DNA of 58,197 bases from the NCBI GenBank assembly GCA_041665545.1, contig JBAYIQ010000005.1, positions 1-58,197 of the forward strand, read 5' to 3'. The stretch comes from Patescibacteria group bacterium. Its GTDB lineage: Bacteria > Patescibacteriota > Patescibacteriia > UBA1558 > GWA2-36-10. A model generated the notes under the pieces. It was given only the letters and a program-made list of their open reading frames with translations, made no database searches and had not been told where the DNA came from. Positions 2,471 through 58,197 of the stretch are shown one piece after another (position 1 is the stretch's first letter; every line of letters starts with the position of its first letter). Position numbers and translations under genes: made by a program.

Positions 2471-4663
2471 ATGTCAAAATTAATTATTGTCGAGTCCCCA
2501 ACCAAAGCCAAAACTATCAGTGGTTTTTTGGGAAAAGAATATAAAGTGGAGTCTTCCTATGGCCATGTCCGAGATTTGCCTGTCAGCAAGCTCGGTGTTG
2601 ACGTGGAAAATAATTTCGAACCCACCTATGCCGTGCCAACCAAAGCCAAAAAAACCGTGGCCAATTTGAAAAAATTAGCCAGTAAGGCCGAGATGGTCTA
2701 CTTCGCGACTGACGAAGACCGTGAAGGAGAAGCTATTAGCTGGCACTTACAAGCATTGCTTGGTGTACCCGTCAAAAAGCAAAAAAGAATTGCTTTTCAT
2801 GAAATTACCAAAAAAGCTATTCAACAGGCCTTGGAAAATCCCCGCGACTTGGATAGTTTTTTGGTTGATGCTCAACAAGCGCGTCGCATCCTTGATCGCC
2901 TAGTCGGCTACAAGCTCTCTCCTCTACTTTGGAAAAAAGTAGCCAGAGGTCTATCAGCCGGACGCGTGCAATCAGTGGCTGTCCGATTGATAGTAGAAAG
3001 AGAAGACGAAATCAAAAAATTCGTGGCCCAAGAATATTGGACCATCGAGGGGCAAGCTGAACATGATAAGCAAGATTTCAAAATAACTGTCTTCCAACAT
3101 CAGGGCAAAACTTTGGATAAATTTGATTTGGATAAAACCAAAGCCGAAACTGCGGTTCGTGAAATAACTCCAGCCAAACTATTGGTCAGACAAGTAGAAG
3201 CCAGAGAAATCAACAAAAAGCCAGCTAGCCCTTTTACCACCTCCACCCTCCAACAAGATGCCAACCGTCGTTTTGGCTACTCGGCCAAGCAAACTATGAT
3301 GCTGGCTCAACAGCTATATGAAGGTGTGCATTTGGGCAGTGAAGGACATGGCGGTTTGATTACTTACATGCGTACTGACTCCCAAAATTTGTCCGCTGAC
3401 TTTGTGACGTCAGCTAATGAATGGATTGTCAAAAACTTTGGTGAGCAATATGCTAGTCAGGGCGGACGCAAATATCGCACCAAAGCCAAGCTAGCCCAAG
3501 AAGCCCATGAGGCCATCCGTCCAACTGATGTGACCAACACGCCTGACAAAGTAAAAGAATATTTGGATAGCCGCCAACACAAATTGTACTCCCTGATCTG
3601 GCAACGCTCTGTGGCTTCCCAAATGGTTGATGCCACTTTAGAAACCACTTCAGTAATAATTGACGCTAAAAACACGGAGTGGACTTTGAAAGCCACTGGC
3701 TCAGTAATCAAATTCCCTGGCTGGCAAAAAGTATATGCCACTGGCAGTGAAGAAAATATTTTACCAGCGCTCAAAGAAAACGATCAGGTGAACTTAAAAA
3801 ATCTGGATGCTCTGCAACACTTTACCATGCCACCTGCTCGCTACTCAGAAGCTGGCCTAGTCCACGCCATGGAAAAACTCGGCATTGGCCGACCTTCTAC
3901 CTATGCCCCGACTATTGCCACTATCGTGGAAAGAAAATATGTTGATAAAATAGAAAAAAGATTGGCCCCCACAGAAATTGGCACTGTGGTCAATAAACTT
4001 CTAGTGGAACACTTCCCCGATATAGTTGACTACAACTTTACAGCCGAGATGGAAAATGACTTAGACAAAATTGCTGAGGGCAAGAAAAAATGGCAACCAG
4101 TGATAAAAGAATTTTATGAACCATTTGCAAGACAATTAGCTATGAAAGAAAAAGAAATAGACAAAAAAGAAATTACAGAAACAGCCACTGACGAAATTTG
4201 CGAAAAATGCGCTTCGCCAATGGTTATCAAACTTGGCCGCTTTGGCAGGTTCTTAGCTTGCACCAATTATCCGGATTGCAAGAATACCAAGCCCCTAGGA
4301 GAAAACGGTGAAGCCCAAGAGCCAGAAAAAACTGACGAAGTCTGCCCCAAATGCAACTCGCCCATGATTTTCAAAACCGGGCGCTTTGGCAAATTCTTGG
4401 CCTGCTCTAATTATCCCGAATGCAAAACCACCAAGCGCGTGGAGCAAGGTACTGGCGTCATCTGCCCCAAGTGCAACAAGGGCGAGATGGTCGCTCGCAA
4501 AGGACGTGGCGGAAAATTCTTCTACACCTGCAACAAATATCCAGAATGTCAGCATATCACTTGGAGTAAACCAACTGGCGAGTACTGTCCCGAATGCAAA
4601 CAACTCTTAATCGCTGGACCAAAAGACACAGTCAAGTGCGAAGCTTGCGATTATACTAAATAA
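2471..4663 (+). CDS. topA: DNA topoisomerase I
   Basis: 730 aa. Has a TOPRIM start (LIIVESPTKAKTI), the catalytic Tyr region (GLITYMRTDS) and four C-terminal CxxC...CxxC zinc ribbons. Confidence 0.95.
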   Translation: MSKLIIVESPTKAKTISGFLGKEYKVESSYGHVRDLPVSKLGVDVENNFEPTYAVPTKAKKTVANLKKLASKAEMVYFATDEDREGEAISWHLQALLGVPVKKQKRIAFHEITKKAIQQALENPRDLDSFLVDAQQARRILDRLVGYKLSPLLWKKVARGLSAGRVQSVAVRLIVEREDEIKKFVAQEYWTIEGQAEHDKQDFKITVFQHQGKTLDKFDLDKTKAETAVREITPAKLLVRQVEAREINKKPASPFTTSTLQQDANRRFGYSAKQTMMLAQQLYEGVHLGSEGHGGLITYMRTDSQNLSADFVTSANEWIVKNFGEQYASQGGRKYRTKAKLAQEAHEAIRPTDVTNTPDKVKEYLDSRQHKLYSLIWQRSVASQMVDATLETTSVIIDAKNTEWTLKATGSVIKFPGWQKVYATGSEENILPALKENDQVNLKNLDALQHFTMPPARYSEAGLVHAMEKLGIGRPSTYAPTIATIVERKYVDKIEKRLAPTEIGTVVNKLLVEHFPDIVDYNFTAEMENDLDKIAEGKKKWQPVIKEFYEPFARQLAMKEKEIDKKEITETATDEICEKCASPMVIKLGRFGRFLACTNYPDCKNTKPLGENGEAQEPEKTDEVCPKCNSPMIFKTGRFGKFLACSNYPECKTTKRVEQGTGVICPKCNKGEMVARKGRGGKFFYTCNKYPECQHITWSKPTGEYCPECKQLLIAGPKDTVKCEACDYTK

Positions 4664-6673: not shown

Positions 6674-6702
6674 ATTATATCATATATAGTACATTTTGTC
6701 AA
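6674..6702 (-). promoter_or_regulatory. Consensus sigma70 promoter for ORF 6250..6609
   Basis: The minus strand reads TTGACA (6697-6702), exactly 17 nt, then TATAAT (6674-6679). Confidence 0.7.
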
Positions 6703-6740
6703 GCCAAACCTAAAAATAGCCATTTTTGGCTATTCGCACA

Positions 6741-6827
6741 GTCATTCTGGAGCGAAGCGATAGAATCCATAAGTTTAACTTATGCTTGTAGATTCTATCG
6801 GCTCCCTTCGGGAGCCTCCAGAATGAC
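6741..6827. repeat. REP-like nested palindrome with a GAGCGAAGCGA core
   Basis: Outer stem GTCATTCTGGAG / CTCCAGAATGAC. Inner stem CGATAGAATC / GATTCTATCG. A further GGCTCCC-TTCG-GGGAGCC hairpin is present. Confidence 0.8.
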
Positions 6828-6844
6828 GATAAAATGCTAAAATT

Positions 6845-7723
6845 TTACTCCTGCAATTTATTTAGTAGATTTTTTAATTCTTCGTGAGAATAAAAATCAA
6901 TCACAATTTGACCGCGCTCGCCTCTTTTTTTGATAGAAACTTTGGCGCCAAGATTCTTGGCTAGTTTATCTTCATAAGCCACGAGAATAGGATCTTGTTT
7001 TTTTTCATTTTTATCTTTGAGCACCGTGCGGTGTGCTAACTCGTCTAGCTGTTTGACCGTCAAATCCGAGTGCAATATTTTTTTGAAAATTTTAATTTGT
7101 TCGGTCTTACCGGGGTAGCTCAAAATTATTTTGGCATGAGAAAAAGTTATTTTGTTTTCCGCTAACGCTTCTTTGATAACAATAGGTAATTGCAGTACTC
7201 GCAACATATTGGCAATGGTCGAGGGACTTTTGCTGACTTGCTTGGCAATGTCTTCTTGTGACAAACCAAACTCCTCCATCAGCCGTTTGTAACTGCCAGC
7301 TTCTTCCAGACAGTTGAGGTCATGACGCTGAATATTTTCGATGATTGATAATTCCAGCTTGTCGCGATCTGATACTTCTTTGATAATGACCGGCACCTCA
7401 GTCATGTTCAAAAGTTGCGCGGCCTTCAAGCGCCGCTCACCAGCAATCAACTGCCAAGTATCTCCCACTCTGGTTACCACCAATGGCTGGATGATGCCGT
7501 GCTTTTTGATTGACTCAGCCAGTTCATTGAGCTTGTCATGATCAAAGTTGGTTCTGGGTTGCCACGGATTAGCGCTGACCTTGTCTATTGGCACAGTGAT
7601 TACTTGCTGACCGCTGGGTGTTTCATCATCACTAAAAGTATGCGCTGAAAAATAATCACGCGCGTTGTTTGATTTTCCTTTGTTGGGTATCAATGCCCCT
7701 AAACCTTTACCTAAAGCTGACAT
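6845..7723 (-). CDS. parB: Chromosome partitioning protein ParB
   Basis: 292 aa with the ParB box IAGERRLKAAQLL and an HTH region (QEDIAKQVSKSPSTIANMLR). It lies next to parA. Confidence 0.9.
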   Translation of the reverse strand: MSALGKGLGALIPNKGKSNNARDYFSAHTFSDDETPSGQQVITVPIDKVSANPWQPRTNFDHDKLNELAESIKKHGIIQPLVVTRVGDTWQLIAGERRLKAAQLLNMTEVPVIIKEVSDRDKLELSIIENIQRHDLNCLEEAGSYKRLMEEFGLSQEDIAKQVSKSPSTIANMLRVLQLPIVIKEALAENKITFSHAKIILSYPGKTEQIKIFKKILHSDLTVKQLDELAHRTVLKDKNEKKQDPILVAYEDKLAKNLGAKVSIKKRGERGQIVIDFYSHEELKNLLNKLQE

Positions 7724-8923: not shown

Positions 8924-10126
8924 TTAATTTAATTTATTTTGCCAATCTTTAATATAATTTTTATAGGCCTCAAGGTTTGTGTCCCCAATTGATTTTTGAG
9001 CGGGCATATCTAGGGTCATGGGATTTATTTTTGTCCCGTTTTTGACTATCTCATAATGCAAATGTGGGCCAGTAGACAAACCAGTGGATCCGACTTTGCC
9101 AATAGTCTGCCCCTGTTTTACTGCCTGTCCAACTTTTACCAAAATCTTACTCATGTGCCCGTAGTTTGTGCTATAGGTACTATTGTGCCTGATAGTTACC
9201 AAATTTCCATACCCCGCCCTACTCCAACCAGCACTTGTGACCACGCCATCACCTACTGTCTTGATCGGTGTGCCAAGAGCGGCCGCATAATCAATGGCTC
9301 GATGTCCGGTGCTGATATTGAAAGCCGAGATATATCGCTTACCGGTCGTGAAGCCCGAGCTGATGTAACGAAAGTCTACTGGATTTTTCAAAAATATTTT
9401 TTCTAGTGACTTACCTTCTGGATCATAGTAGCCATCAATCAGCTCATTATCATCGCCTGTCCCTTCATTATAATAAAATCCCTCCACGACTTTGCCATCA
9501 TTGACAAAGCGAGCAGCCATTACCTGACCCGGCATTACATACTGGCCATTTCTATAACGCTCCTCATAAATAAATTTATAAGTATCCCCCTGTCTGATGC
9601 CCATACCAAAATCAATGCTCCAAGCAAAAACATCAGCCAAGGCAATAATCGCCCGTTCATCAATACCTTGAGCCATAGCTGATTCATATAGTGAACTATC
9701 AATCGAGCCACTGACTGTCTTTATTTTTATTTCGTAATCAATCTTTTTTCTTTCAGATCTATAAGCGCCGTCAATCAAATCAATATATAGCTCTTCTTCT
9801 GAGCTAATAGCGTAAACCATTTGCCGTAACTCGCTGGTTTGCTTATCAAAGAAAAATTTTATCTCTTTACCAGCCCTGATGCTAGCCAAATCATAAATAT
9901 CTTTTGAGGCCGTAATCAAGCCATTGGTGGTGCTAGCTGATAGACCAGCATTTTCAGTAATGACTGAAAAAGTATCACCCGGATTGATAATCACCGACAC
10001 TTCTCTATACTTTGACTCTGGAGCTGGGCTTGAATCCTGGCTAAAAACGCTGTTTTTGGGTAAAAAATAAATAACGGCGCCAGCCGCCAAAAATATAAGG
10101 GCAATTATAATACTTTTTTTCAGCAT
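8924..10126 (-). CDS. M23 family metallopeptidase (secreted or membrane-anchored)
   Basis: 400 aa with an N-terminal signal/anchor and the M23 motifs HRAIDYAA and GPHLHYEI. Confidence 0.85.
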   Translation of the reverse strand: MLKKSIIIALIFLAAGAVIYFLPKNSVFSQDSSPAPESKYREVSVIINPGDTFSVITENAGLSASTTNGLITASKDIYDLASIRAGKEIKFFFDKQTSELRQMVYAISSEEELYIDLIDGAYRSERKKIDYEIKIKTVSGSIDSSLYESAMAQGIDERAIIALADVFAWSIDFGMGIRQGDTYKFIYEERYRNGQYVMPGQVMAARFVNDGKVVEGFYYNEGTGDDNELIDGYYDPEGKSLEKIFLKNPVDFRYISSGFTTGKRYISAFNISTGHRAIDYAAALGTPIKTVGDGVVTSAGWSRAGYGNLVTIRHNSTYSTNYGHMSKILVKVGQAVKQGQTIGKVGSTGLSTGPHLHYEIVKNGTKINPMTLDMPAQKSIGDTNLEAYKNYIKDWQNKLN

Positions 10127-10201
10127 ATACTATATTTTAATTAAATTATACGATTTTAGCAAACCCTATGAAAAGAGCTGGATATTATATATAATTATGC
10201 T

Positions 10202-11329
10202 ATGCGGAAAATAGGCCAAAAGCGACTAATAGTGTACCCCTTTTTGTTGGGTGCGGCTTTTATGCTGGCTAGTGATTTGCCTTTGGCACGCATTAGCTAC
10301 CCCAATGCCGACAGGACAAACCCCTCAAGCTCTACTCCGGAAAAAATATTACATTTAAAAAAACCCGACTACGTGCGGGGAATTTATCTGACTGCCTCAT
10401 CAGCCGGTAATGACAGCTACCGCCAAAAACTTATTGTTAATTTAAAAAAGGGCTACATCAATAGCGTGGTAATTGATATCAAAGATTATTCTGGCTACAT
10501 ACTTTATGATACTCAAGTTGCTGAAGTAAATGAAATCCAAGGAAAAAAAATAAGAATGGACGTCGACCAAGTAATTGATGATTTCCATGAGGTTGGAATA
10601 TACACCATAGCTCGTCAGACTGTTTTCCAAGATCCGGTTTTGGCGGAGGCCAAACCTGAGCTGGCTATGCACACCAAGGCAGGAAATATCTGGCGTGATA
10701 ACAAAAATTTGGCCTGGCTTGACCCTGGCAATGAAAAAGTGTGGGAATATAATTTGGCTATATCCCGCGAAGCAATACTTTTGGGTTTTGATGAAATTAA
10801 TTTTGACTACATGCGCTATCCCAGTGACGGCCCTATGTCTAGTCTGGACTACAACTTGCCACCCGAAAAACAAAAATACGATGTCATGAAAAGTTTTTAC
10901 CAATACTTATCCAAAAATATTTCTGGTCTGACGCCAATTTCTGTAGACATGTTTGGCTTGGTCATGGACAATGTCAAAGATAATTATGATTTAAATATTG
11001 GCCAACGCTTGATTGATGCCTTAGATTATTTTGATGACATTGACCCCATGATGTATGCTTCGCATTACCCCAAAAATTATTTGGGCTATGAAAACTCGGC
11101 CGAGCATCCGGGTGAAGTAGTCGCCTATGGACTAAAGATCAGTCAGGCCACCACTACCAATCGTCGAGCCAAAATCAGGCCTTGGTTGCAGGCCTTTTCT
11201 ATTGGTGCTGTCTATGACCAAGAAAAAATAAAAGCGCAAATCAGGGCCACTGAAGCAGCTACCAGCACTTCTGGCTGGCTATTTTGGAATGCCCGCAATG
11301 TTTATGCGGATTATATGTTTGTAGAATAA
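10202..11329 (+). CDS. Putative glycoside-hydrolase-like TIM-barrel protein (DUF4015-like)
   Basis: 375 aa with an N-terminal anchor. The strings VRGIYLTASSAG, NSVVIDIKDYSG and GFDEINFDYMRYP match my recollection of the DUF4015 family. Not checked by search. Confidence 0.5.
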   Translation: MRKIGQKRLIVYPFLLGAAFMLASDLPLARISYPNADRTNPSSSTPEKILHLKKPDYVRGIYLTASSAGNDSYRQKLIVNLKKGYINSVVIDIKDYSGYILYDTQVAEVNEIQGKKIRMDVDQVIDDFHEVGIYTIARQTVFQDPVLAEAKPELAMHTKAGNIWRDNKNLAWLDPGNEKVWEYNLAISREAILLGFDEINFDYMRYPSDGPMSSLDYNLPPEKQKYDVMKSFYQYLSKNISGLTPISVDMFGLVMDNVKDNYDLNIGQRLIDALDYFDDIDPMMYASHYPKNYLGYENSAEHPGEVVAYGLKISQATTTNRRAKIRPWLQAFSIGAVYDQEKIKAQIRATEAATSTSGWLFWNARNVYADYMFVE

Positions 11330-12382: not shown

Positions 12383-12411
12383 TTGACTTTATGTAATATA
12401 TATTGTAAAAT
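12383..12411 (+). promoter_or_regulatory. Sigma70-type promoter of the tRNA cluster
   Basis: TTGACT (12383-12388), 17 nt, TAAAAT (12406-12411). Confidence 0.65.
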
Positions 12412-12428
12412 CATCTGTGTTTAATTGA

Positions 12429-12482
12429 GCCGAAGTGGCCCGCCCGGCGCGCCAATGGCGCACCTTTGGCGGATGAGTAGCT
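12429..12482 (+). ncRNA. Leader module: copy of tRNA-Leu nt 1-11 plus a GC-rich nested hairpin
   Basis: GCCGAAGTGGC (12429-12439) is identical to 12543-12553. It is followed by CCGCC-CG-GCGCC-AAT-GGCGC-ACCTTT-GGCGG. Confidence 0.6.
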
Positions 12483-12542
12483 TGTTTCAATCAACTTTGG
12501 TTTAATTAAAAAAGCACGCTTAGAATTTATAATTTACTTTAA

Positions 12543-12629
12543 GCCGAAGTGGCGGAACTGGCAGACGCGCTGGACTCAAAATCCAGTGACCGCAAGGTCG
12601 TGGAGGTTCAAGTCCTCTCTTCGGTACCA
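12543..12629 (+). tRNA. tRNA-Leu(CAA), class II, CCA encoded
   Basis: Cloverleaf folded by hand. Acceptor GCCGAAG/CTTCGGT, anticodon loop CTCAAAA, long variable arm, T-loop TTCAAGT. Confidence 0.9.
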
Positions 12630-12784
12630 CTCGATTCGCCTTTTGCTTCGCAAAAGTCTCACTCGCGGTCTACGGTGCTTATCGCACCTCCGACCATTTC
12701 ACAATAAATAATCGAGTGCCCTGCCATTCGGCCCTGAGGGGCCTCAGGCCCTGAACGGGAGCGAACGAAGTGAGTCGAAGGGCA
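12630..12784 (+). ncRNA. Conserved structured RNA directly 3' of CCA, copy 1
   Basis: Long-range stem CACTCGATT / AATCGAGTG that includes C75-A76 of the tRNA. Hairpin CTTTTGC-TTC-GCAAAAG. Hairpin GGTC..GGTGC-TTATC-GCACC..GACC. A further GC-rich hairpin has a GAGCGAACGAAGTGAGTCGA core. Confidence 0.6.
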
Positions 12785-12796
12785 TAAACAATTTCA

Positions 12797-12843
12797 GGGC
12801 CGTTAGCTCAGTTTCGCCCACAGGGCGACCACCCAGTGGGTGG
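12797..12843 (+). ncRNA. Leader module: copy of tRNA-Ala nt 1-17 plus two GC hairpins
   Basis: GGGCCGTTAGCTCAGTT (12797-12813) is identical to 12895-12911. It is followed by TCGCCC-ACA-GGGCGA and CCACCC-AGT-GGGTGG. Confidence 0.6.
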
Positions 12844-12894
12844 GGCTAGTCATGTTGATTTGCTCATTAAAGTTTTTACAAAAAATTATTCTTT

Positions 12895-12971
12895 GGGCCG
12901 TTAGCTCAGTTGGCTAGAGCGCTTCCATGGCATGGAAGAGGTCGCAGGTTCGACCCCTGTACGGTCCACCA
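12895..12971 (+). tRNA. tRNA-Ala(GGC), CCA encoded
   Basis: 77-nt hand-folded cloverleaf with the G3:U70 identity pair and anticodon loop ATGGCAT. Confidence 0.9.
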
Positions 12972-13061: not shown

Positions 13062-13138
13062 CGGGGTGTGGCGCAGTTGGCTAGCGCGCACGCATGGGGT
13101 GCGTGAGGCCGGAGGTTCAAGTCCTCTCACCCCGACCA
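13062..13138 (+). tRNA. tRNA-Pro(GGG), CCA encoded
   Basis: 77 nt. Acceptor CGGGGTG/CACCCCG, anticodon loop ATGGGGT with G37. Confidence 0.9.
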
Positions 13139-13155
13139 ATTTATAAATTAATCGG

Positions 13156-13233
13156 GGCAGGGTAGCTCAGTTTGGTTAGAGCGTGGGACTCATAAGCCCG
13201 AGGTCGTGGGTTCGATCCCCACCCCTGCTACCA
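13156..13233 (+). tRNA. tRNA with CAU anticodon (elongator Met or Ile2; not resolvable by eye)
   Basis: 78 nt. Acceptor GGCAGGG/CCCTGCT, anticodon loop CTCATAA. Positions 31:39 are an A-G mismatch. Confidence 0.8.
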
Positions 13234-13342
13234 CTCGATTCGCCTTTTGCTCCGCAAAAGTCTCACTCGTGGTCTCCGGTGCTTATCGCACCTCCGACCA
13301 TTCTCCATATCATGAATCGAGTGTTCCGAGCGAAGTCGAGGG
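13234..13342 (+). ncRNA. Conserved structured RNA directly 3' of CCA, copy 2
   Basis: Near-identical to copy 1 across the core (CTCGATTCGCCTTTTGCTCCGCAAAAGTCTCACTCGTGGTCTCCGGTGCTTATCGCACCTCCGACCATT...GAATCGAGTG), plus a GAGCGAAGTCGA hairpin. Confidence 0.6.
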
Positions 13343-13406: not shown

Positions 13407-13652
13407 ATGAAAAAATTTTTCTTTTATTTTGCCCGATGTAACGATAATACCCTTTATGCTGGTTACACAAATAATATAAAAAATAGAGAAATAAAACACA
13501 ACGACGGTAAGGGCGCAAAATACACTAAATGTAGATTACCAATAAAAATAATATACTGGGAGAAATTTGATACCAGGATTGAAGCCATGAAACGGGAAGC
13601 ACAAGTAAAACGTTGGAGTAAAATAAAAAAAGAAAAATTAATAAAAAATTAA
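13407..13652 (+). CDS. Mini GIY-YIG nuclease-family protein (81 aa)
   Basis: MKKFFFYFARCNDNTLYAGYTNNIKNREIKHN... has GIY-YIG-type motifs (LYAGYT, R..H, and a Glu in REAQVKRWS). I trimmed the track ORF 13206..13652 to the Met after the tRNA and its trailer. Confidence 0.7.
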   Translation: MKKFFFYFARCNDNTLYAGYTNNIKNREIKHNDGKGAKYTKCRLPIKIIYWEKFDTRIEAMKREAQVKRWSKIKKEKLIKN

Positions 13653-13722
13653 ATTTTTTACGACGCGGGGTAGCCCGCCCGGCACGCCTACGGCGAAGCC
13701 GTGGCGGACGGGAGCAGTACCA
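13653..13722 (+). ncRNA. Leader module: 21-nt copy of the tRNA-fMet 5' flank plus nt 1-10, then a GC-rich nested hairpin
   Basis: ATTTTTTACGACGCGGGGTAG (13653-13673) is identical to 13987-14007. The following CCCGCCCGGCACGCCTACGGCGAAGCCGTGGCGGA aligns with the Leu module. Confidence 0.6.
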
Positions 13723-13736
13723 CACTGAATATGCAT

Positions 13737-13985
13737 ATGAAAATATTACTTTTTTATACTTATGTCCTAAAAAGTAAAAAAGATAACAAATTGTATGTTG
13801 GATATACCGATAATCTAAACAAAAGAATCCAAAAACATAATGATGGAAAAGTTGAATCAACAAAAAATAGAAGACCATTTACATTATTATATTTTGAAGC
13901 TTGCCTAGATAAGTATAAAGCAATAAAAAGAGAAAAATATTTTAAAACGGGCTTTGGTAGGAGATTTTTAAAAAGTAGGATATAA
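13737..13985 (+). CDS. Mini GIY-YIG nuclease-family protein (82 aa), paralogue
   Basis: MKILLFYTYVLKSKKDNKLYVGYTDNLNKRIQKHN... with GIY-YIG-type motifs. It lies entirely between the 21-bp direct repeats that flank the tRNA-fMet 5' end. Confidence 0.7.
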   Translation: MKILLFYTYVLKSKKDNKLYVGYTDNLNKRIQKHNDGKVESTKNRRPFTLLYFEACLDKYKAIKREKYFKTGFGRRFLKSRI

Positions 13986-13997
13986 TATTTTTTACGA

Positions 13998-14073
13998 CGC
14001 GGGGTAGAGCAGTTGGCAGCTCGCCAGGCCCATAACCTGGAGGTCGCCGGTTCGAGTCCGGCCCCCGCTACCA
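13998..14073 (+). tRNA. Initiator tRNA-fMet(CAU), CCA encoded
   Basis: 76 nt. C1xU72 mismatch and an A11:U24 pair (initiator hallmarks). Anticodon loop is CCCATAA, so position 33 is C rather than U. Confidence 0.85.
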
Positions 14074-14117
14074 ATTTATACAATCCGAGGTAGCTCAGTG
14101 GTAGAGCAGTTGGCTGT

Positions 14118-14703
14118 ACATTTACATCGTGTATGTGGTATACTTATTGATGTATGCCAGATACAAGAAAATATGTCGATCGTGCTGAGTATTTAAAACA
14201 AGCAGTTGCTAAACGTCGTAAAGATGTGAAAATAATGCTTGTAAAATATAAGGGCGGTAAGTGTAAGACTTGTGGCTATAAAAAATCCGTAGAAGCTCTT
14301 GAGTTCCATCATATAAATGAAAGAAAAAAGAAGTTTGGAATTTCTGGGCAAGGATTAACTAGATCTTGGAAAAGTGTAAAGCAGGAAGCTGATAAATGCA
14401 TCTTGCTTTGCGCAAATTGCCACAGGGAATTGCACGCAAAATAGTGCAGCTTCCTCAAGTAATTGAGGTTGACAAACGGGGTGAACTGTCCCGCAAAACG
14501 GGAGCCCGCCAAAGGCGGTGCCGGGAAGCCTAAGTCTAAAAGATATGGTAATCCGCAGCCAAGCCCTGAACCAGATGGTTCAGGGAAGGTTCAGAGACTA
14601 TCCGAAAGGAGTAGGCAGTATTTACTAGCCGAAGCGCCCCGCATCCTAAAAAATTATAGGATGATGATATAGTCCATCCCTTTAGGAAACTTAAGGATCG
14701 ATG
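14118..14703 (+). mobile_element. Group I intron carrying an HNH ORF
   Basis: The 5' exon ends in U and the intron ends in G. Core strings CCGCAGCCAAGCCC (14553-14566), GTTCAGAGACTA (14589-14600) and GATATAGTCC (14666-14675) match the conserved catalytic-core blocks of Tetrahymena/Azoarcus-type introns as I remember them. I did not confidently identify P1 or the internal guide sequence by eye, so boundaries are accurate to within a few nt. Confidence 0.75.
14154..14444 (+). CDS. HNH homing-endonuclease-like protein (96 aa), intron-encoded
   Basis: CKTCGY...LEFHHINE...LLCANCHRELH is an HNH motif with two CxxC pairs. The ORF lies wholly inside the intron. Confidence 0.8.
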   Translation: MPDTRKYVDRAEYLKQAVAKRRKDVKIMLVKYKGGKCKTCGYKKSVEALEFHHINERKKKFGISGQGLTRSWKSVKQEADKCILLCANCHRELHAK

Positions 14704-14747
14704 TAACCAATTGGTCGTGGGTTCAAATCCCTCCCTCGGAGCCATTA

Positions 14748-47597: not shown

Positions 47598-47718
47598 ATG
47601 TCTCTCGACTCGCTACGCTCGCTCAAGACACTCGATTCATGATACGAAAATGGTCGTAGGTGCTGAAAAGCACCGGAGACCACGAGTGAGTTTTTTGCTA
47701 AGCAAAAAACGAATCGAG
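47598..47718 (-). ncRNA. Conserved structured RNA directly 3' of CCA, copy 3
   Basis: The minus strand reads CTCGATTCGTTTTTTGCTTAGCAAAAAACTCACTCGTGGTCTCCGGTGCTTTTCAGCACCTACGACCATT...GAATCGAGTG, plus a GAGCGAGCGTAGCGAGTCGA hairpin. It shows compensatory changes relative to copies 1 and 2. Confidence 0.6.
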
Positions 47719-47808
47719 TGGCGGAGAGGACAGGATTTGAACCTGCGAGGGATTTTACTCCCTACTCGCTTTCCAAGCGAGCGCACTAGACCACTATGCG
47801 ACCTCTCC
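47719..47808 (-). tRNA. tRNA-Ser(GGA), class II, CCA encoded
   Basis: 90-nt hand-folded cloverleaf. Acceptor GGAGAGG/CCTCTCC, anticodon loop TTGGAAA and a long variable arm. Confidence 0.9.
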
Positions 47809-47826
47809 ATATTATAAATATTATTT

Positions 47827-47880
47827 ACGCTTTTCCCGCCCGCCCCGCAGCGCGGGGCAAGCGGGATATGCGACCTCTCC
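47827..47880 (-). ncRNA. Leader module: copy of tRNA-Ser nt 1-14 plus a GC-rich nested hairpin
   Basis: GGAGAGGTCGCATA (complement of 47867-47880) is identical to the tRNA 5' end (47795-47808). It is followed by CCCGC-TT-GCCCCGC-GCT-GCGGGGC-G-GGCGGG. Confidence 0.6.
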
Positions 47881-47900: not shown

Positions 47901-47929
47901 AATATAAACGAAACTCACGTATTAGTCAA
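47901..47929 (-). promoter_or_regulatory. Sigma70-type promoter of the tRNA-Ser unit
   Basis: Minus strand: TTGACT (47924-47929), 17 nt, TATATT (47901-47906). Confidence 0.6.
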
Positions 47930-58004: not shown

Positions 58005-58046
58005 GCCCTAGCTACCGATTACACACGGCGGCTGGGGCTTTTTTTT
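58005..58046 (+). terminator. Rho-independent terminator of ORF 57742..57987
   Basis: 13-bp stem (one mismatch, two G-U pairs) between 58005-58017 and 58026-58038, followed by T8. Confidence 0.65.
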
Positions 58047-58047
58047 C

Positions 58048-58071
58048 GACCCGCCGGGTGACCCGCCGGGT
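58048..58071. repeat. Tandem duplicated palindromic 12-mer
   Basis: GACCCGCCGGGT occurs twice in tandem. Each unit is self-complementary (ACCCG-C-CGGGT). Confidence 0.8.
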
Positions 58072-58197
58072 CGTCGCAAAAGAATCAAGAGCTTGGAATC
58101 AGCTGGACAGGTACTAGGTAGTTAATACCCATGTGCGTACGCTCATTGTTGTAATAACTTAAATACTTAATTAAAGCTTCTTGTAAGCTAACAAGAT

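Follow-up and report, generated by a model that had tools for sequence, protein, structure and literature searches.

Probable insertion scars of a very small GIY-YIG nuclease and GC-hairpin element family at the 5′ ends of Patescibacteria tRNA genes

Introduction

Why would a tRNA gene be preceded by a broken copy of its own beginning? The question is raised by a stretch of 58,197 nucleotides (nt) of DNA from a Patescibacteria group bacterium (contig JBAYIQ010000005.1, positions 1 to 58,197; hereafter the window), in which exact copies of the 5′ ends of the tRNA-Leu, tRNA-Ala, tRNA-fMet and tRNA-Ser genes lie upstream of these genes, each followed by a GC-rich hairpin. A reading of the letters alone (the sequence-only reading) had offered two answers: the copies might have been left behind by a small element that has tRNA genes as its targets and restores their 5′ ends, with the fMet copy as its autonomous form, or they might form a functional leader acting on RNase P processing. 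We compared the window with loci fetched from other records, labelled L003, L092 and so forth. The comparison indicates that the four sites are quite probably scars from the insertion of very small mobile elements, all of one Patescibacteria family and consisting of a GIY-YIG nuclease gene, a GC-rich hairpin, or both.

Results

Four displaced tRNA 5′ ends

The window, a Parcubacteria-like contig, has the sequence of JGI 3300037810 Ga0376277_0002854, and the same letters are present in one ENA assembly. ARAGORN and Rfam place genes for tRNA-Leu(CAA) (12543-12629), tRNA-Ala(GGC) (12895-12971), tRNA-Pro (13062-13138), tRNA-Met (13156-13233) and tRNA-fMet (13998-14073) on the forward strand, and for tRNA-Ser(GGA) (47719-47808) on the reverse strand. 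Sequence comparison within the window recovers all four of the upstream exact copies described by the sequence-only reading, the downstream copy being an intact tRNA in every case; the Leu repeat measures 12 nt rather than 11, extending one nucleotide further to the left. Immediately after each stranded copy comes a GC-rich hairpin with a predicted folding energy of −26 to −36 kcal/mol, followed by AT-rich DNA. The order first proposed, of copy, hairpin, AT-rich spacer and tRNA, is correct up to the hairpin, beyond which the copy resumes (AGCAGT in fMet, GGCTAG in Ala). Since the stranded copy continues after the hairpin, as comparison with empty sites confirms, the duplications are longer than the exact repeats alone: 27 nt for fMet and 23 nt for Ala, each interrupted by the hairpin, instead of the 11-21 bp originally given.

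Across the window and the fetched loci, there are 50 tRNA genes out of 183 for which 11 nt or more of the 5′ end recur exactly within the 700 nt upstream. Mirror controls on the same 183 genes gave five cases when the upstream region was compared with the 3′ end and eight when the downstream region was compared with the 5′ end, a strong excess from which we conclude that the repeats are not due to chance. Repeats may be mis-joined in metagenome assemblies, and the sequence-only reading had named such an artefact as a result that could undo it. This is contradicted by the identical sequence in the JGI and ENA assemblies and by the recurrence of the inserts in independent samples, the Leu insert with a few single-nucleotide polymorphisms (SNPs) in four of them (L092-L095) and the fMet insert in two (L103 and L104). 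That the repeats are an artefact of assembly or a product of chance has next to no probability.

Filled and empty sites in relatives

Orthologous clusters were fetched via the exoIII gene that neighbours tRNA-Leu, and empty alleles of the Leu, Ala and fMet sites, which the sequence-only reading had proposed to look for, are found in close relatives. In L003, whose exoIII is 90% identical, the same promoter (TTGACT...TGTAAAAT...catctgtgtttaattga) abuts an intact tRNA-Leu, bearing out the idea that the promoter now upstream of the stranded Leu copy once served the tRNA directly. The tRNA-Ala of L003 is also uninterrupted, and its tRNA-Pro carries a 30-nt hairpin identical to the Ala hairpin of the window at the same D-loop position, between CAGTT and GGCTAG. 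This Pro insert includes an 18-nt copy of the 5′ end of tRNA-Pro itself, and the piece resumed after the hairpin is Pro-specific (GGCTAGCG).

In L092 (exoIII 90% identical), the Leu site is filled and the Ala and fMet sites are empty. Directly upstream of its empty fMet site lies a first small GIY-YIG open reading frame (ORF), also found in the window, so that L092 presents the state of the window before insertion. Three more distant clusters (L005, L008/L009 and L096; exoIII about 83% identical) are empty at Leu, Ala, Pro and fMet. Taken by site, the Leu hairpin module is present with SNPs in L092-L095 and absent from L003, L005, L008 and L096, while the fMet site is filled in the window, L103 and L060 and uninterrupted in L092, L005, L008 and L096. 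A search of metagenome contigs for the exact pattern of the Ala hairpin gave no match, and a scan of these contigs for the exoIII protein returned one distant locus, which lacks tRNAs. The empty sites, together with the presence of the same hairpin in another tRNA gene in L003, identify the inserts as polymorphic insertions rather than leaders; they have therefore been gained and lost among close relatives.

Anatomy of the four inserts

At the Leu site, the original tRNA promoter (12383-12411, forward strand, TTGACT-17-TAAAAT) now feeds the stranded 5′ fragment, which covers tRNA positions −1 to 11 (12428-12439, with 12429-12439 equal to 12543-12553). The hairpin module, of the Leu/fMet type, occupies 12440-12473 and is matched by a covariance model at 12439-12477 (18.9 bits); its final GGA may correspond to tRNA positions 12-14. 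The insert contains no ORF. Its AT-rich spacer (12474-12542) has no homologue in a BLAST search of all fetched DNA and carries a promoter-like site (12506-12533, TTAAAA-16-TATAAT) that ends 9 nt before the intact tRNA.

The Ala insert is likewise without an ORF. Positions 1-17 of the tRNA are stranded at 12797-12813 (equal to 12895-12911), followed by two tandem hairpins of the Ala type (12814-12843, 30 nt), the resumed copy GGCTAG representing positions 18-23 (12844-12849), and a 45-nt AT-rich spacer (12850-12894), for which BLAST against all fetched DNA found no homologue either.

The fMet insert contains the nuclease gene. The stranded copy comprises 11 nt of 5′ flank and tRNA positions 1-10 (13653-13673, equal to 13987-14007). 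A 39-nt hairpin (13674-13712; covariance-model score 42 bits) separates positions 10 and 11 of this copy and is identical in L103 and identical at 38 of 39 positions in L060; the copy resumes with AGCAGT, positions 11-16 (13713-13718). After a further 18 nt comes an ORF of 82 residues (13737-13985), a single T, and then the flank again from −11 onwards with the full tRNA (13987-14073). The claim that a GIY-YIG ORF lies in the 334-bp interval between the fMet repeats is thus confirmed, and the ORF is intact.

On the reverse strand, a promoter (47901-47929, TTGACT-17-TATATT) precedes stranded positions 1-14 of tRNA-Ser (47867-47880, equal to 47795-47808), a GC-rich hairpin (47836-47866; folding z = −4.5) and an AT-rich spacer (47809-47835). 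The covariance model matches this hairpin, which was outside its training set, with 17.8 bits. Both this promoter and that of the Leu site are sigma-70-like, in agreement with the good promoters predicted before the two copies.

In general, the layout can be written as A-hairpin-B-(ORF or spacer)-A-B-C, with A-B standing for the 5′ part of the tRNA and C for the remainder; the inserts range in size from 58 to 330 bp. When the AT-rich spacers and the fMet left leader were compared by BLAST with all fetched DNA, the matches were at chance level only. It can consequently not be demonstrated that a spacer is a decayed ORF, and the earlier proposal that the ORF-less inserts derive from an ORF-bearing copy found no support in this comparison.

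The nuclease gene and the common layout

In the 82-residue protein, the Pfam GIY-YIG domain (PF01541, E = 8e-18) spans residues 6-73 and is the only domain found; no NCBIfam family was matched by the ORFs. The motif positions Tyr9, Tyr20, Gly22, Arg30, His34, Asn35 and Glu54 are invariant in four divergent copies. The closest solved structures are the UPF0213 proteins 1zg2 and 1ywl, and there is weak similarity to SLX1. A protein search returned 1165 homologues at E ≤ 1e-5, and among the 120 best listed the named ones are mostly from Patescibacteria. Scanning one genome per species for the ORF gave 167 relatives, of which the best 80 loci were fetched; these come from many candidate phyla, with protein identities of 63-77%, which suggests that the ORF spreads horizontally. 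Many loci among L011-L090 that have typical Patescibacteria gene content are titled "uncultured Gammaproteobacteria", and L077 is titled "Methanosarcinaceae"; these records are probably mislabelled bins.

The ORF is tightly linked to tRNA genes. In the fetched DNA, 47 of 92 copies have a tRNA start within 30 nt past their stop codon and 63 of 92 within 150 nt; in some the stop codon lies within the tRNA. Where an ORF-tRNA pair could be evaluated, an upstream copy of at least 10 nt of the tRNA 5′ end was found in 37 of 48, in one common order: 5′ part of the tRNA, GC-rich hairpin in either orientation, more of the tRNA, ORF and full tRNA. At least 15 tRNA species are affected. The point at which the hairpin interrupts the stranded copy varies from tRNA position 6 to 22, and the piece beyond it, usually target-specific, measures 1-12 nt with one outlier of 20. 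Duplications start between about −27 and +1 (usually −5 to +1) and end at positions 10-36, giving lengths of about 12 to more than 40 nt. Over the shared part, 44 of 55 stranded copies show no difference from the live one. A hairpin precedes the ORF in most loci. Versions without an ORF also occur elsewhere, at Thr in L027, Asn in L060 and both Lys and Thr in L078.

The hairpin as a mobile unit

The common hairpin, a module of 30-75 nt, has the consensus CCCGCCCGCAACGCC...GCTTGCGATGGCGGGCGGG with arms CCCGCCCGC and GCGGGCGGG. It occurs in both orientations about equally (roughly 16 versus 12), with unchanged spacing to the ORF. In five loci (L037, L050, L067, L079 and L080) the ORF lies between the two arms of a hairpin, and in L077 between two full hairpins; from this nesting we take the solo hairpin to be an ORF-less miniature. 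The ORF-in-hairpin form thus has true terminal inverted repeats, whereas at the tRNA sites 5-14 nt of target sequence lie between the hairpin and the ORF or spacer, and the right end has no repeat. At tRNA-Lys(UUU) loci, the hairpin stands right at the start of the tRNA, its terminal GGG being shared as tRNA positions 1-3.

With filters off, the hairpin covariance model matches the window at the fMet, Leu and Ser sites only; the Ala hairpin is a separate family, with copies in the window and L003 only. In the 1.17 Mb of fetched DNA 96 hairpins were found, some of them away from tRNAs. Rfam had no match for the hairpin modules or for the tRNA trailers, either at the gathering threshold or at E ≤ 1.

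An alignment of 59 copies, folded with RNAalifold and with a structure drawn by hand, has arms conserved in sequence and 88% of cells paired, yet covariation is no better than in shuffled alignments. Conserved arms without covariation are better explained by recognition by a protein, or by the behaviour of the DNA itself, than by a selected RNA fold, and the idea of an RNA under structural selection was dropped. The claim that the Leu and fMet modules differ in ways that preserve pairing has no statistical support, these copies showing no significant covariation. Modules with neither covariation nor homologues beside other tRNAs would, according to the sequence-only reading, have pointed to chance duplications; covariation is indeed absent, but homologous modules do stand beside other tRNAs. 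The hairpins at the tRNA sites are not terminators, as no T runs follow them.

Other hairpins are present in the window. A 36-nt GC-rich one (ccattcggccctgaggggcctcaggccctgaacggg; 12724-12759, forward strand) is inserted in the Leu-Ala spacer relative to L003, implying that small GC hairpins enter plain spacers too. Perfect or near-perfect GC palindromes beside T runs (645-679 and 58046-58079) are outside the tRNA-associated family and look like ordinary terminators.

Other targets and replaced tRNA alleles

NAD-dependent epimerase genes have the A-hairpin-B-ORF-A-B-C layout as well, at their 5′ end, in the stretch that encodes GGAGFIG (L015, about 6690-7080; L066 and L071, about 9900-10330). 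In L066, the end of the element supplies the epimerase with a new ATG and four new codons. By analogy, this choice of target would follow the logic typical of homing elements. In an AbrB-like gene, the ORF nested in hairpin arms sits at a Trp codon without duplication (L037, about 9950-10300; L067, about 1750-2050; L079, about 1130-1440; L080, about 2760-3130). Mirror cases exist in which a full tRNA is followed by an ORF, hairpins or both, and then by a duplicated 3′ part (L038, 6850-7300; L060, 9158-9340 and 10595-10660).

Some inserts are accompanied by a change of tRNA allele. At tRNA-Pro of L092, resident positions 1-36 survive as a fragment, and behind it come a hairpin, a spacer and a complete tRNA of foreign origin; live and stranded alleles differ by nine substitutions and one indel, and the acceptor, D and anticodon stems contain compensatory changes. 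In L060, an older tRNA-Leu allele persists in two hairpin-riddled pieces, one from its 5′ and one from its 3′ end, on either side of the present tRNA-Leu. Further replacements lie beside scars in L081 and L045, and the tRNA-Pro of L003 is foreign or mosaic in the T-arm. Targeting of conserved sequence and transfer of flanking alleles are the behaviour expected of homing-type elements.

Neighbouring features

The first GIY-YIG ORF of the window (13407-13652, forward strand; 81 residues, identified with Pfam, with the C-terminus KRWSKIKKEKLI) stands in the interval from tRNA-Met to tRNA-fMet and does not belong to the new insert. It occupies the same tRNA-adjacent place in L092, L103, L005 and L096 and is not accompanied by a duplicated piece of tRNA.

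Beyond tRNA-fMet, a tRNA-Asn(GUU) gene (14084-14744, forward strand) was missed by ARAGORN. Its anticodon loop is split by a group I intron (Rfam, 14473-14696) with an HNH ORF (14154-14444). The intron is also present in L092, and L103, L005, L008 and L096 have intronless alleles; group I introns of this class are known from tRNA genes of Patescibacteria (PMC13011429).

A structured module of about 90 nt directly follows tRNA-Leu (12627-12718), tRNA-Met (13231-13330) and, on the reverse strand, tRNA-Ser (47630-47721). Its closing stem (ACTCGATT/AATCGAGT) takes in the last A of CCA and encloses two inner hairpins, with another hairpin after it. L092 and L103 contain a diverged version with some compensatory changes; the module is absent after Leu in L005, L008 and L096 and has no Rfam match. 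Between 22300 and 25030, the window has several segments of more than 77% G+C within a contig of 41% G+C. Two relatives (L008, 9064-10648; L009, 4393-5623) contain a pair resembling a diversity-generating retroelement, bAvd plus reverse transcriptase, beside exoIII; it is absent from the window.

Discussion

The comparison shows that the insertions are polymorphic between relatives, that one fixed order of parts recurs across many lineages and tRNA species, that the nuclease gene is linked to the hairpin, that a complete gene is regenerated, and that foreign alleles occasionally occur. In essence, the first answer of the sequence-only reading, a small tRNA-targeting element with an autonomous fMet copy, is borne out by the empty sites, the hairpin in tRNA-Pro of L003 and the recurring layout. 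It needs revision in that the duplication is longer and interrupted by the hairpin, and in that the hairpin is mobile itself, occurs in both orientations and sometimes encloses the ORF.

The proposed family would have two building blocks, a single-domain GIY-YIG gene of about 250 bp and a hairpin of 30-75 nt, the arms of which can also flank the gene. An element would enter the 5′ half of a tRNA gene, leaving the original 5′ end and promoter upstream as a dead fragment broken by the hairpin. A second copy of the 5′ end, from about −5 to +1 up to about 16-32, would follow the element and join the remainder of the gene, so that a complete tRNA is kept. The nuclease may nick or cut the tRNA gene, probably while the DNA is single-stranded and folded, and the filled allele could then spread to the same tRNA gene in other cells via break repair or recombination, sometimes bringing a foreign tRNA allele with it. 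Such recombination would use the upstream flank and A on the left, and B-C on the right. By destroying the target and splitting the direct repeat, the hairpin in the stranded copy might protect against re-cutting and against repeat-mediated loss. The ORF-less Leu, Ala and Ser inserts would be non-autonomous members moved in trans. It may be speculated that both boundaries of the duplication would be consistent with a nuclease that cuts at the stem bases of DNA folded while single-stranded.

A more far-reaching version can be put forward only tentatively, and we consider it rather unlikely: a minimal GIY-YIG nuclease would use single-stranded folded DNA and a hairpin to insert into essential single-copy genes, and the same event would yield a long, structure-anchored duplication that rebuilds the 5′ end and reaches from the acceptor-stem base as far as the D or anticodon arm. 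Such an unrecognised mode of transposition would define a "gene-regenerating" element, capable of living within the tRNA genes and conserved protein genes of minimal genomes.

Several points weigh against an origin of the sites from such elements. Duplications usually start within a few nucleotides of tRNA position 1, also in recent inserts, which neither classical homing nor a transposase with a fixed stagger would predict. The activity of the nuclease is predicted and its target preference putative, and a protein of 82 residues that is all catalytic domain has no obvious way to recognise tRNA genes. A homing model would have filled alleles immune to the enzyme, and it is a difficulty that the live tRNA of such an allele still presents the presumed target undamaged. 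The spacers of the ORF-less inserts have no detectable similarity to one another or to the ORF. No clean empty Ser site was found among the loci examined (L098, L100, L101 and others): in L101 the tRNA-Ser has a different, larger insert, the second hairpin and spacer of which are homologous to those at the Ser site of the window, and in L098 and L100 the tRNA-Ser is gone from the locus. Finally, the loci were retrieved by similarity to the ORF, and the frequencies reported here hold for the ORF family and not for Patescibacteria tRNA genes in general.

Other explanations have to be measured against the same observations. If the stranded copy and hairpin were a selected part of the pre-tRNA, competing for the 3′ strand of the acceptor stem or guiding RNase P and so tuning the output of tRNA, one would expect them to be transcribed, as is probable for a fragment between a good promoter and a tRNA. 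The hairpins are stable, and that of fMet is 38/39 identical between the window and L060 while the DNA of the ORFs is only about 73% identical. But the supposed leader is present or absent between relatives with near-identical flanks, its hairpin points either way about equally often, the site of insertion varies from tRNA position 6 to 22, no significant covariation or Rfam family was found, and the AT-rich spacers carry promoter-like sites of their own beside the tRNA. With the same layout in protein-coding genes and hairpins away from tRNAs, we give this second answer of the sequence-only reading very little credence. Somewhat less improbable, but still distinctly unlikely, is that the nuclease plays no part in the insertions, and that transformed single-stranded DNA replaces tRNA alleles by homology on one side and an illegitimate join on the other; hairpins would protect or mark the end of the fragment, and the nuclease genes would be passengers or trim incoming DNA like Ssn in Neisseria. 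The foreign or mosaic alleles beside scars (tRNA-Pro in L092, the T-arm of tRNA-Pro in L003, tRNA-Leu in L060, and L081 and L045) would follow naturally, the junction at tRNA-Pro of L092 resembles a product with one homologous and one illegitimate end, and Ssn nucleases are reported to act on transforming single-stranded DNA near hairpin repeats (PMC11893778). Most stranded copies, however, do not differ from the live one, and in L019, L034 and fMet of the window this identity takes in locus-specific upstream flank, up to 12 nt or more of it; this indicates a duplication of the recipient's own sequence; the tight linkage of ORF and tRNA and the nesting of the ORF in the hairpin make ORF and hairpin one element rather than passengers.

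The sites might, alternatively, combine unrelated events, namely slippage duplications of 5′ ends or remnants of integrase elements, with hairpins and ORFs gathering by chance in dead DNA. Dead tRNA pieces in L060 do hold many different small hairpins, and the 36-nt hairpin in a plain spacer of the window is a further case of a hairpin on its own. Against such an assembly by accident, the recent inserts (Leu, Ala, fMet and tRNA-Pro of L003) already combine duplication and hairpin, no duplication without hairpin or ORF occurs among the close relatives, no integrase lies nearby, the inserts are short and inside the gene with the duplication on the 5′ side, and one ordered layout unites 37 of the 48 ORF-tRNA pairs; its probability is very small, comparable to that of a leader. 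Further models were also set aside: an integrase or att island in a tRNA gene, given the size of the inserts, the duplicated 5′ part and the lack of a recombinase ORF in or next to them; an intron; and clusters of tRNA pseudogenes. A cut-and-paste transposon or miniature inverted-repeat element would leave a target-site duplication of fixed length, and the length here is variable.

Insertion by a minimal nuclease-hairpin element family, which remains the explanation we favour, would have several consequences. The genomes of Patescibacteria are tiny and most of their tRNA genes exist in one copy, yet those genes are hot spots for selfish DNA. The layout is a simple way to occupy an essential gene without killing the host: the old start is abandoned and a new one is supplied. 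It would account for the odd tRNA fragments and GC hairpins that confuse the annotation of Patescibacteria genomes and for the exchange of tRNA alleles between lineages, and would give the recently found Ssn-like minimal nucleases a possible role in mobile elements. Should the nuclease indeed recognise the hairpin, or tRNA genes that are single-stranded and folded, it could prove useful as a tool specific for single strands.

Comparison with known systems

The literature searched holds no description of the invasion of tRNA genes with regeneration of the 5′ end, or of the present layout. Integrase islands and prophages in tRNA genes are kilobases long and encode a recombinase of the tyrosine or serine type, and the part that they duplicate is nearly always the 3′ one. 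They share with the present elements that part of the tRNA is carried or duplicated so that the gene stays intact, and that direct repeats of tRNA sequence flank the insert; the present inserts, of 58-330 bp, contain no recombinase gene, and it is the 5′ part that is duplicated. The REP/BIME sequences with their RAYT enzymes, and IS200/IS605 with its miniature palindromic derivatives, depend on HUH (Y1) enzymes, are extragenic and do not regenerate gene ends (see the discussion in PMC11893778). A small nuclease gene, dispersed GC-rich palindromes and the lack of a short fixed target duplication are common to both; the enzyme here is of the GIY-YIG type, and gene ends are regenerated.

Endonuclease ORFs of fungal mitochondria, such as Allomyces atp6-ORF360, bring a replacement gene end, and the displaced piece of the resident gene stays as a pseudo-fragment. 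The resemblance lies in an endonuclease ORF within a conserved gene, a foreign copy that sometimes restores this gene, and GC-rich mobile hairpins or double-hairpin elements in an AT-rich genome. There, the 3′ end of a protein gene in an organelle is concerned, whereas the elements described here are bacterial, affect tRNA and protein genes at the 5′ end and have an ORF-linked hairpin that interrupts the displaced piece. These mitochondrial ORFs, and likewise the mitochondrial GC clusters (PMC4478555), are analogues of the present elements in function.

The group I introns of Patescibacteria (PMC13011429) are also selfish inserts in tRNA genes of the same phylum, with one in this very window in tRNA-Asn. 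Introns are spliced from RNA and need no duplication; the present elements are not introns and lack any Rfam match. In phage T4, segB is a free-standing GIY-YIG homing endonuclease gene in a tRNA cluster that leaves no duplication (PMC2330249). The parallels comprise a GIY-YIG gene among tRNA genes, a target in the tRNA region of alleles without the gene, spread by break repair with co-conversion of flanks, and conserved targets. Features of homing elements seen in our data are the intact motif residues, the filled and empty fMet alleles in relatives and the foreign or mosaic alleles beside inserts. Seg proteins are larger, with DNA-binding domains, and their genes lie between other genes without a duplicated end or hairpin; the present inserts lie within a gene, the 5′ end of which is restored.

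Among published systems, the one that comes closest is the Ssn family of single-domain GIY-YIG nucleases, which cut single-stranded DNA beside hairpin repeats (NTS/SRM) (Chenal et al. 2025, PMC11893778). The sequence-only reading, which knew of no described element with this layout, is supported by the literature searched but had not named these related nucleases. According to that paper, Ssn genes are often flanked by hairpin-forming inverted repeats of 20-50 nt in an IS-like "hairpin-gene-hairpin" arrangement, with solo copies dispersed; the family is defined as CDD cd10448 and described mainly in Pseudomonadati. The paper mentions neither tRNA genes nor Patescibacteria and reports no mobility, and neither its sections on the Ssn family nor its discussion describe a duplication of gene ends. 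The likeness is one of size, domain and layout: a single-domain GIY-YIG protein of fewer than 100 residues (here 82), a gene flanked by hairpins, and dispersed solo hairpins. The differences are that the closest solved relatives here are UPF0213 proteins, that the hairpins lie inside displaced gene fragments, and that tRNA genes are the targets. The UPF0213 structures 1zg2 and 1ywl are included in a minimal "bacterial Slx1-like" GIY-YIG group (PMC1564403), and the UPF0213-like relatives of the ORF may form a subfamily other than Ssn. Judged by their sequences, the elements of the window and its relatives would combine a free-standing GIY-YIG or Ssn-like nuclease with hairpin repeats, and appear to be set apart from known examples in that they lie within tRNA and protein genes, the 5′ ends of which are regenerated.

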